The position numbers were made by a program, and so were the translations under genes. The notes beneath the pieces are model-generated. The model did not search any database, was not told the DNA's origin, and saw nothing but the letters and a program-made list of their open reading frames with translations. Of a DNA stretch of 64,000 nt, positions 3,426-4,262 are shown in pieces. The stretch comes from Escherichia coli (GTDB lineage Bacteria > Pseudomonadota > Gammaproteobacteria > Enterobacterales > Enterobacteriaceae). The DNA lies in NCBI RefSeq assembly GCF_044324875.1, contig NZ_CP172185.1. One strand, written 5' to 3'. Numbering within the stretch: the stretch's first letter is position 1; every line of letters begins with the position of its first letter.

Positions 3426-4083
3426 ACTTAACTCCACTGTCACACTTAACTCCCTTTCCCTTATTGGAATGCAGAGAAATAATCCTCGAGAATATGATTT
3501 ATCATGCATATAAAATAAGAAAAAGGAAAATGAGTAAAATTAGGAAAACATAAAGATACGGGTTCTTATAAAAACAGAATCCATTGCCGTGGAAAGCGTC
3601 ATTTACCACAGCATAATAATCCATAATGTTTTTGTTGCGAAAACAATCTAATCATAACTACCACGAATACTCAATCATCCACAAAATGGATTAAATGTGC
3701 TTTTTTAATAATTAATTTATATGTTTAATGCATTAATTCTTAACATTAATTGATCAATAATATTCACCAAATGAATATCAAAAAATTCGCAAAACATATA
3801 ATTCAATACAAATCATCAGGATAGGTTTTGTAACGCGTGCATTTTATCCCCCTTTCCCTCGTCGATTAGATGCAAAAATTTATTCTGAAATATGTCAACC
3901 GATGAAAAGCAGCGGTGGTTAAGCAGAAATTAATATCGCTTGTTTTAACCACCGCAGCACAATTAGCTAATTTGACTGATGCAGAACTCACGCTGGCTGG
4001 ACGTTTTTGTTGCATCAGGGTTGACATCCGTTTTGGTATCCAGTAACTCTAAAAGCATATCGCATTCATCTGGAGCTGATTTG
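3426..4083. promoter_or_regulatory. AT-rich divergent control region between leuO and leuL-leuABCD
   Basis: Very AT-rich ~650 bp intergenic tract (e.g. 3650-3800); in K-12 this region carries the H-NS-silenced promoter relay. Confidence 0.5.
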
Positions 4084-4170
4084 ATGACTCACATCGTTCG
4101 CTTTATCGGTCTACTACTACTAAACGCATCTTCTTTGCGCGGTAGACTGGTGAGCGGCATTCAGAATTAA
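4084..4170 (+). CDS. leuL: leu operon leader peptide (28 aa) with four consecutive Leu codons
   Basis: [28 protein letters not shown] inside ORF 3979..4170; run CTA CTA CTA CTA; immediately upstream of leuA. Confidence 0.85.
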
Positions 4171-4192
4171 GTCAGCACTCAGTCAAACAAAA

Positions 4193-4220
4193 AACCCGCG
4201 CCATTGCGCGGGTTTTTTTA
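4193..4220 (+). terminator. leu attenuator: GC-rich hairpin followed by a T-run
   Basis: cccgcgcc-att-gcgcggg followed by tttttttt, between leuL stop and leuA start. Confidence 0.8.
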
Positions 4221-4262
4221 TGCCCGAAGCGAGGCGCTCAAAAAGAGACAAGGACCCAAACC

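Follow-up and report, generated by a model that had tools for sequence, protein, structure and literature searches.

Genomic context of the leuO-leuL region

The 64,000-nt stretch of Escherichia coli DNA analysed here (the window, 64 kb) carries the gene order ilvI, leuO, leuL and leuA-D, which is annotated likewise in K-12 MG1655 and in E. coli NY1601. We focus on positions 3426–4262, the interval bounded by the leuO start codon on one side and the leuA start codon on the other, neither included (Table 1). The leuO ATG occupies 3423–3425 on the minus strand, with the annotated protein start (MPEVQ) at 3425. The corresponding segment of K-12 MG1655 (NC_000913.3 83530–84367; leuL b0075, leuO b0076) has identical genes in identical order and orientation and measures 838 bp, compared with 837 bp in the window. 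The succession of ilvIH, leuO and then the divergent leuLABCD, which is the synteny of the promoter-relay region, has the same layout as in K-12.

Table 1 Features in and around the leuO-leuL control region of the window.
Feature	Position	Strand	Basis
ilvI	438–2174	−	ORF
leuO, LysR-type regulator, 314 codons	2481–3425	−	ORF; annotated at the orthologous positions in K-12 and NY1601
leuO-leuL divergent intergenic spacer, 658 bp	3426–4083		Between both start codons
AT-rich spacer core, presumed H-NS-bound/silencer part with leuO promoters	3508–3807		G+C minimum; H-NS role from PMC3950696, PMC5025477
Conserved box AGCACAATTAGCTAA, core palindrome TTAGCTAA	3956–3970		50 bp upstream of the leu −35
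Probable leu promoter: −35 TTGACA (4021–4026), 17-bp spacer, weak −10 TAACTC (4044–4049)	4021–4049	+	Conservation, spacing
leu leader RNA (attenuator), Rfam RF00512	4070–4219	+	cmscan
Protector structure	4070–4182	+	Minimum-free-energy fold, −37.7 kcal/mol alone
leuL leader peptide gene, 28 codons and stop	4084–4170	+	ATG at 4084
Four consecutive CTA leucine control codons	4111–4122	+	leuL reading frame
Antiterminator (pre-emptor), GCGCGG (4137–4142) with CCGCGC (4196–4201)	4137–4201	+	Constrained folds, −18.7 kcal/mol
Intrinsic terminator, 13-bp stem, loop CATT, T7 run	4189–4219	+	Folding, −19.7 kcal/mol
leuA, first structural gene under attenuator control	4263–5834	+	ORF; annotated leuA in matches
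leuA-D	4263–8944	+	ORFs

Two further features lie close to leuO. Read on the minus strand, positions 3416–3451 contain an 18-nt tandem duplication that repeats the ribosome-binding site and start of leuO (GGAGTTAAGTGTG followed by GGAGTTAAGTATG) and so places a GTG in frame, six codons ahead of the annotated ATG. The duplication is identical in K-12 and is therefore a property of the species, not specific to this strain. Between ilvI and leuO, a 14-codon ORF (VKRNDKILHYRGLN) is found at 2282–2326 on the plus strand, at a position where K-12 is annotated with the small protein YabR (b4726) and NY1601 with a hypothetical protein.

Leader RNA and the leucine attenuator

A search with cmscan matched the leader to Leu_leader (RF00512) over the full model (1–148 of 148) with 140.6 bits, where the gathering score is 50 (E = 4.6e-32), and no other Rfam match above threshold was found within 2000–5000. 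With this family of ribosome-mediated leu operon attenuators, whose Salmonella and E. coli paradigm comes from Calvo and co-workers, the window shares a leader ORF with four leucine codons, the protector, pre-emptor and terminator arrangement, and a position directly upstream of leuA. It departs from the model by a 2-nt insertion in the A-rich linker before the terminator, and by nothing substantial. The leuL Shine-Dalgarno sequence, GGAG, is at 4072–4075, and codons 10–13 of the reading frame are all CTA. The terminator arms, AAAAAACCCGCGC (4189–4201) and GCGCGGGTTTTTT (4206–4218), are 100% complementary, with a G+C core at 4195–4201 and 4206–4212 and the T7 run at 4213–4219. A run of A6 before the stem mirrors the T7 run after it, and the minus strand of 4189–4219 also scores as terminator-like (a partial Rfam match of 33.7 bits, below threshold), with no converging gene to use it.

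Folding of the leader gave a minimum free energy of −58.6 kcal/mol compared with a mean of −36.3 kcal/mol for shuffled sequences (z = −5.98), and none of the 200 shuffles was as good. In the unconstrained fold the terminator forms a separate hairpin downstream of the protector, in which segments 4070–4085, 4094–4101 and 4107–4115 of the 5′ side pair with 4141–4149, 4150–4157 and 4166–4182 of the 3′ side, around an inner hairpin of 4125–4128 with 4136–4139. The paired 5′ half takes in the Shine-Dalgarno sequence along with the start codon and the CUA run, and GCGCGG is held within the protector. Constrained folds, in which the footprint of a stalled ribosome was masked at each of the four CUA codons and the RNA was ended before the 3′ terminator arm, paired GCGCGG with CCGCGC in the window and K-12 leaders alike. 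The predicted structures thus reproduce a mutually exclusive terminator and antiterminator, and in these models the leader follows the textbook protector, pre-emptor and terminator logic.

These results agree with a preliminary description of the region, made from the sequence alone, which had reported four CTA codons in leuL and a GC-rich hairpin with a T-run at ~4193–4220 (located here within a few bases of that estimate), and had proposed folding the leader for alternative terminator and antiterminator pairings. Its identification of the region is borne out by orthology, by the Rfam match and by the K-12-like gene order, and its view that nothing here is anomalous also holds.

Taken together, the elements suggest the following model. 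Transcription from a weak sigma-70 promoter (TTGACA at 4021) would produce a leader RNA of ~160 nt carrying the 28-codon leuL. With an ample supply of charged tRNA-Leu for CUA, the ribosome would pass the four CUA codons and the 5′ half of the leader would then pair with 4141–4182, sequestering GCGCGG, so that the hairpin at 4189–4218 and its U-run could form and transcription would end before leuA. When leucine is scarce, the ribosome would be expected to stall at the CUA run and cover the 5′ arm of the protector. GCGCGG would then be free to pair with CCGCGC in the 5′ arm of the terminator, which would keep the terminator from forming and allow RNA polymerase to continue into leuA.

Leucine-dependent read-through is known for the Salmonella and E. 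coli leaders (cited in PMC1183508), and the same source describes the rare CUA control codons as important for sensitivity (citing Carter, Bartkus and Calvo 1986). We infer by orthology that the leader in the window would respond to leucine in the same way, all of its functional elements being identical to those of K-12.

Conservation of the leader across genera

Species-representative genomes were scanned for the pattern CTNCTNCTNCTNAACGC-N8-TGCGCGG, and 116 loci were recovered; the genera represented include Escherichia, Salmonella, Citrobacter, Enterobacter, Klebsiella, Raoultella, Kluyvera, Kosakonia and Erwinia. Any CTN was admitted at the leucine codons, yet CTA ×4 was found in nearly all 116 leaders, representing >20 genera. 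One leader (L036) has CTT as its fourth leucine codon.

Among 101 distinct leaders, no variation is seen in the terminator's 7-bp G+C core or in either arm of the antiterminator, a result that is partly by construction because the search required TGCGCGG and the extraction required GCG.GGG; the 5′ arm CCCGCGC, unlike the other arms, lay outside both patterns. Since the antiterminator helix is invariant, it draws its support from conservation and not from covariation.

The protector, in turn, shows changes of pair type. Position 4110 pairs with 4146 as U-A in 69 leaders and as C-G in 18, and 4108:4148 occurs as G-U, A-U or G-C. Applied to the 101 leaders, RNAalifold found the inner stem of the protector and the terminator but no more; because alignment indels blur the outer stem, the fold of the window leader was projected onto the alignment. 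Over the pairs of this fold, terminator included, 83.9% of cells were paired across the 101 leaders compared with 37–47% in slid controls, and pair types numbered 38 as against 18–28. Double-sided compensatory changes were seen at 8 protector pairs versus 4–8 in the controls, which is no excess, so the covariation evidence for the protector is modest. Conservation carries most of the weight, and the structural support for the protector comes from the percentage of paired cells and the number of pair types.

Differences from K-12 and the lineage of the window

The promoter −35, Shine-Dalgarno sequence, start codon, CTA ×4, antiterminator and terminator are identical to those of K-12. Seven substitutions separate the two leaders over 157 nt (4083, 4148, 4149, 4161, 4165, 4172 and 4179), and none of them falls in the Shine-Dalgarno sequence, start codon, CUA run, antiterminator or terminator. 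Three of the seven keep or create protector pairs. The pairing of 4083 is kept (A-U in K-12, G-U here) and 4172 creates an A-U pair, while 4148 and 4149 are still paired in a slightly shifted register. At the protein level, LeuL differs from that of K-12 by R22L and H28N, both downstream of the control codons, and an identical leuL coding sequence is annotated in NY1601 (WP_032141177.1).

Seven differences in so short a leader, including R22L and H28N, raise the question of whether the attenuator might be functionally altered and either leaky or super-repressed. The window leader folds at −58.6 kcal/mol compared with −55.7 kcal/mol in K-12, and its protector is slightly more stable and in a slightly different register. 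However, a difference of 3 kcal/mol is within prediction error, every change lies either past the control codons or within the outer stem of the protector, and the elements on which attenuation depends are as in K-12. The same leuL allele is also carried by other E. coli (NY1601), and far larger variation at these positions is tolerated in other genera. We consider an altered attenuator very improbable, and favor a leader that works as its K-12 orthologue does.

Sequence divergence from K-12 is uneven along the locus. Identity is 97–98% in ilvI, leuO and leuA (leuO 98.0%, leuA 96.9%) and 95.1% in the spacer, where the most diverged part, 3808–4083, is 93.5% identical. The best E. coli match for the spacer is NY1601 at 99.4%, and only 10 genomes reach 99% in the leuO-leuL region. 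In leuABCD, none of the 5,399 complete E. coli genomes is more than 99.0% identical, and identity to K-12 is ~97%. These low maximum identities indicate that the lineage of the window, inside E. coli or adjacent to it, is somewhat unusual, which leaves the findings on the control region unaffected.

The probable leu promoter and a conserved upstream box

The probable leu promoter was placed by conservation and spacing. Across genera, conservation covers both its TTGACA and the block TATCCAGTAxCxCTAAAAGCATATCGCA. The putative −10 and a putative transcription start near 4057 are assigned from the spacing and from the K-12 leu start site. A consensus promoter and terminator scan called neither the leu promoter, because its −10 is poor, nor the attenuator terminator, because the A-run pairs with the T-run and no free T tail was counted. 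We take both misses as limitations of the tool and not as evidence of absence.

When the 220 bp preceding leuL were aligned, three conserved islands stood out between divergent patches: the leader with the core promoter block, the −35 TTGACA, and the box at 3956–3970. With two mismatches or fewer, AGCACAATTAGCTAA was detected at 88 of 109 related enterobacterial loci, and it occurs as a single such site in the 64-kb window. The distance from the box to TTGAC is 50–52 bp in 71 loci or 40–42 bp in 15 loci, two arrangements that are one helical turn apart. The flanks of the box, at 3895–3955 and 3971–4015, are almost wholly different even between Escherichia species.

Binding of LeuO to a leuLABCD promoter fragment is stronger with 2-isopropylmalate (PMC12494820). 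It is conceivable, if rather unlikely, that the box is an operator of the leu promoter not yet assigned, for example a LeuO/2-isopropylmalate feed-forward site on leuLABCD. If the box is an operator, its species-specific flanks might tune it. LeuO and Lrp are only guesses at a binding factor, and the box may equally well be a site catalogued in the literature already.

Upstream of the leu promoter is a 14-nt inverted repeat (3909–3922 and 3945–3958; GCAGCGGTGGTTAA and TTAACCACCGCAGC), complementary at 13 of 14 positions with the arms 22 nt apart. The repeat is imperfect and weaker in K-12, where the hairpin survives only on the minus strand by way of a G-U pair, and other Escherichia species lack it. 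The repeat was considered as a possible RNA or DNA element but is probably fortuitous.

Composition and length of the leuO-leuL spacer

The spacer has a G+C content of 33.4% compared with the window mean of 52.7%. The lowest-G+C 300 bp in the whole 64 kb is the spacer core at 3508–3807 (25.3%), and G+C falls to 17% at 3700–3799. With as many as two mismatches allowed, the H-NS high-affinity motif TCGATAAATT was matched at only two sites in the spacer, both with two mismatches. Four small ORFs in the spacer, at 3915–4046 on the plus strand and at 3866–4027, 3502–3624 and 3717–3806 on the minus strand, were rejected as genes: third-position bias is absent, two of the four are broken in K-12, and the patch containing 3915–4046 and 3866–4027 is unconserved among Escherichia species. 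No tandem or dispersed repeats were found in the spacer except short AT-rich inverted repeats.

The preliminary description was right that the ~650-bp spacer is strongly AT-rich (the spacer is the strongest compositional dip in 64 kb), but its suggestion that the spacer may be some tens of bp longer than that of K-12 does not hold. Aligned with MAFFT to MG1655 83530–84367 (838 bp), the 837-bp region matches from end to end over 838 columns at 95.3% identity, with 38 substitutions and one 1-nt gap. This pairwise alignment, which the preliminary description had itself proposed, is essentially gap-free, and the conjecture of extra length fails. The single indel is an additional A that K-12 carries in an A-run near window position 3779, so the difference is in the opposite direction. 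The annotated K-12 spacer (leuL ATG/end at 83708, leuO ATG/start at 84368) is accordingly 659 bp, versus 658 bp in the window.

A megablast of 3426–4262 against 5,426 complete E. coli genomes found the region in 5,399 of them, with coverage of at least 80% in 5,378, and 29 full-length E. coli matches, chosen as a spread sample, gave spans of 834–839 bp for the region. The remaining 21 of the 5,399 genomes match only part of the leuO-leuL region. One of these, E. coli FDAARGOS_943 (NZ_CP065615.1), has 41% coverage, restricted to query positions 498–837. Such partial matches suggest insertions or rearrangements inside the AT-rich spacer of those strains.

Disruptions may therefore occur in the species, and the preliminary description had hinted at added length in the window. 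An insertion of tens of bp, such as a repeat, an IS remnant or a duplicated segment, could in turn alter promoter spacing or H-NS nucleation. Nonetheless, the near gap-free alignment in which K-12 is the longer by one base, the scarcity of repeats in the spacer, and the narrow range of spans among the sampled matches leave such an insertion in the window a negligible probability.

The leuO and leuL genes are divergent in all 95 related loci that contain both, and their spacers are 475–759 bp long, mostly 600–660 bp, with 31–40% G+C. The length of 658 bp is typical for the family. Horizontal acquisition is the usual reason for H-NS-bound AT-rich islands, and with 25–33% G+C against 53% in the window, the spacer could be read as foreign DNA instead of an ancestral regulatory region; but the layout and the AT-rich spacer are shared by those 95 loci (Escherichia, Salmonella, Citrobacter, Enterobacter, Klebsiella, Kosakonia and others), no relatives without the spacer were seen among them, and mobile-element features and coding ORFs are absent from it, so that we give foreign origin practically no credence. 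The AT-rich spacer is thus ancestral within the family.

Expected H-NS silencing and promoter relay

In E. coli, leuO has two promoters and is repressed by H-NS/StpA (PMC3950696, PMC5025477). In K-12, BglJ-RcsB activates leuO at P2, and sites of LeuO autoregulation have been reported (PMC3950696, PMC5025477, PMC6698644). A supercoiling-dependent promoter relay links ilvIH, leuO and leuABCD in Salmonella, where genetic work defined it as sequential activation from ilvIH to leuO to leuABCD (PMC4264507, PMC10981669).

By analogy with K-12 and Salmonella, the 658-bp AT-rich spacer would carry the H-NS/StpA-silenced leuO promoters and would couple transcription of ilvIH, leuO and leuLABCD through local supercoiling and LeuO. 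Both the silencing and the relay are here carried over from K-12 and Salmonella by orthology, and H-NS binding to the spacer is likewise expected on that ground. The H-NS-silenced relay region of Salmonella (Fang & Wu 1998; Chen et al. 2001–2005, as cited in PMC4264507 and PMC10981669) comprises the same three units, arranged divergently or in tandem. The AT-rich leuO-leuL spacer is also similar in size, at 645 bp in S. enterica subsp. arizonae. Between Escherichia and Salmonella, however, the spacers can be aligned in detail only at the leu core promoter, the conserved box and the leader. Both a 72-bp AT-rich silencer and the relay itself were defined in Salmonella and cannot be mapped onto the window by sequence.

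Conclusions

We hold with high confidence that positions 3426–4262 are the orthologue of the E. coli K-12 leuO-leuLABCD control region, including its attenuator mechanism and its AT-rich leuO spacer. The region is intact, canonical, already known and not anomalous. The comparative leader data may serve as a teaching or benchmarking set. The locus carries a canonical leucine attenuator and leuO control region without structural change relative to K-12, and the current understanding of this control region is unaltered.
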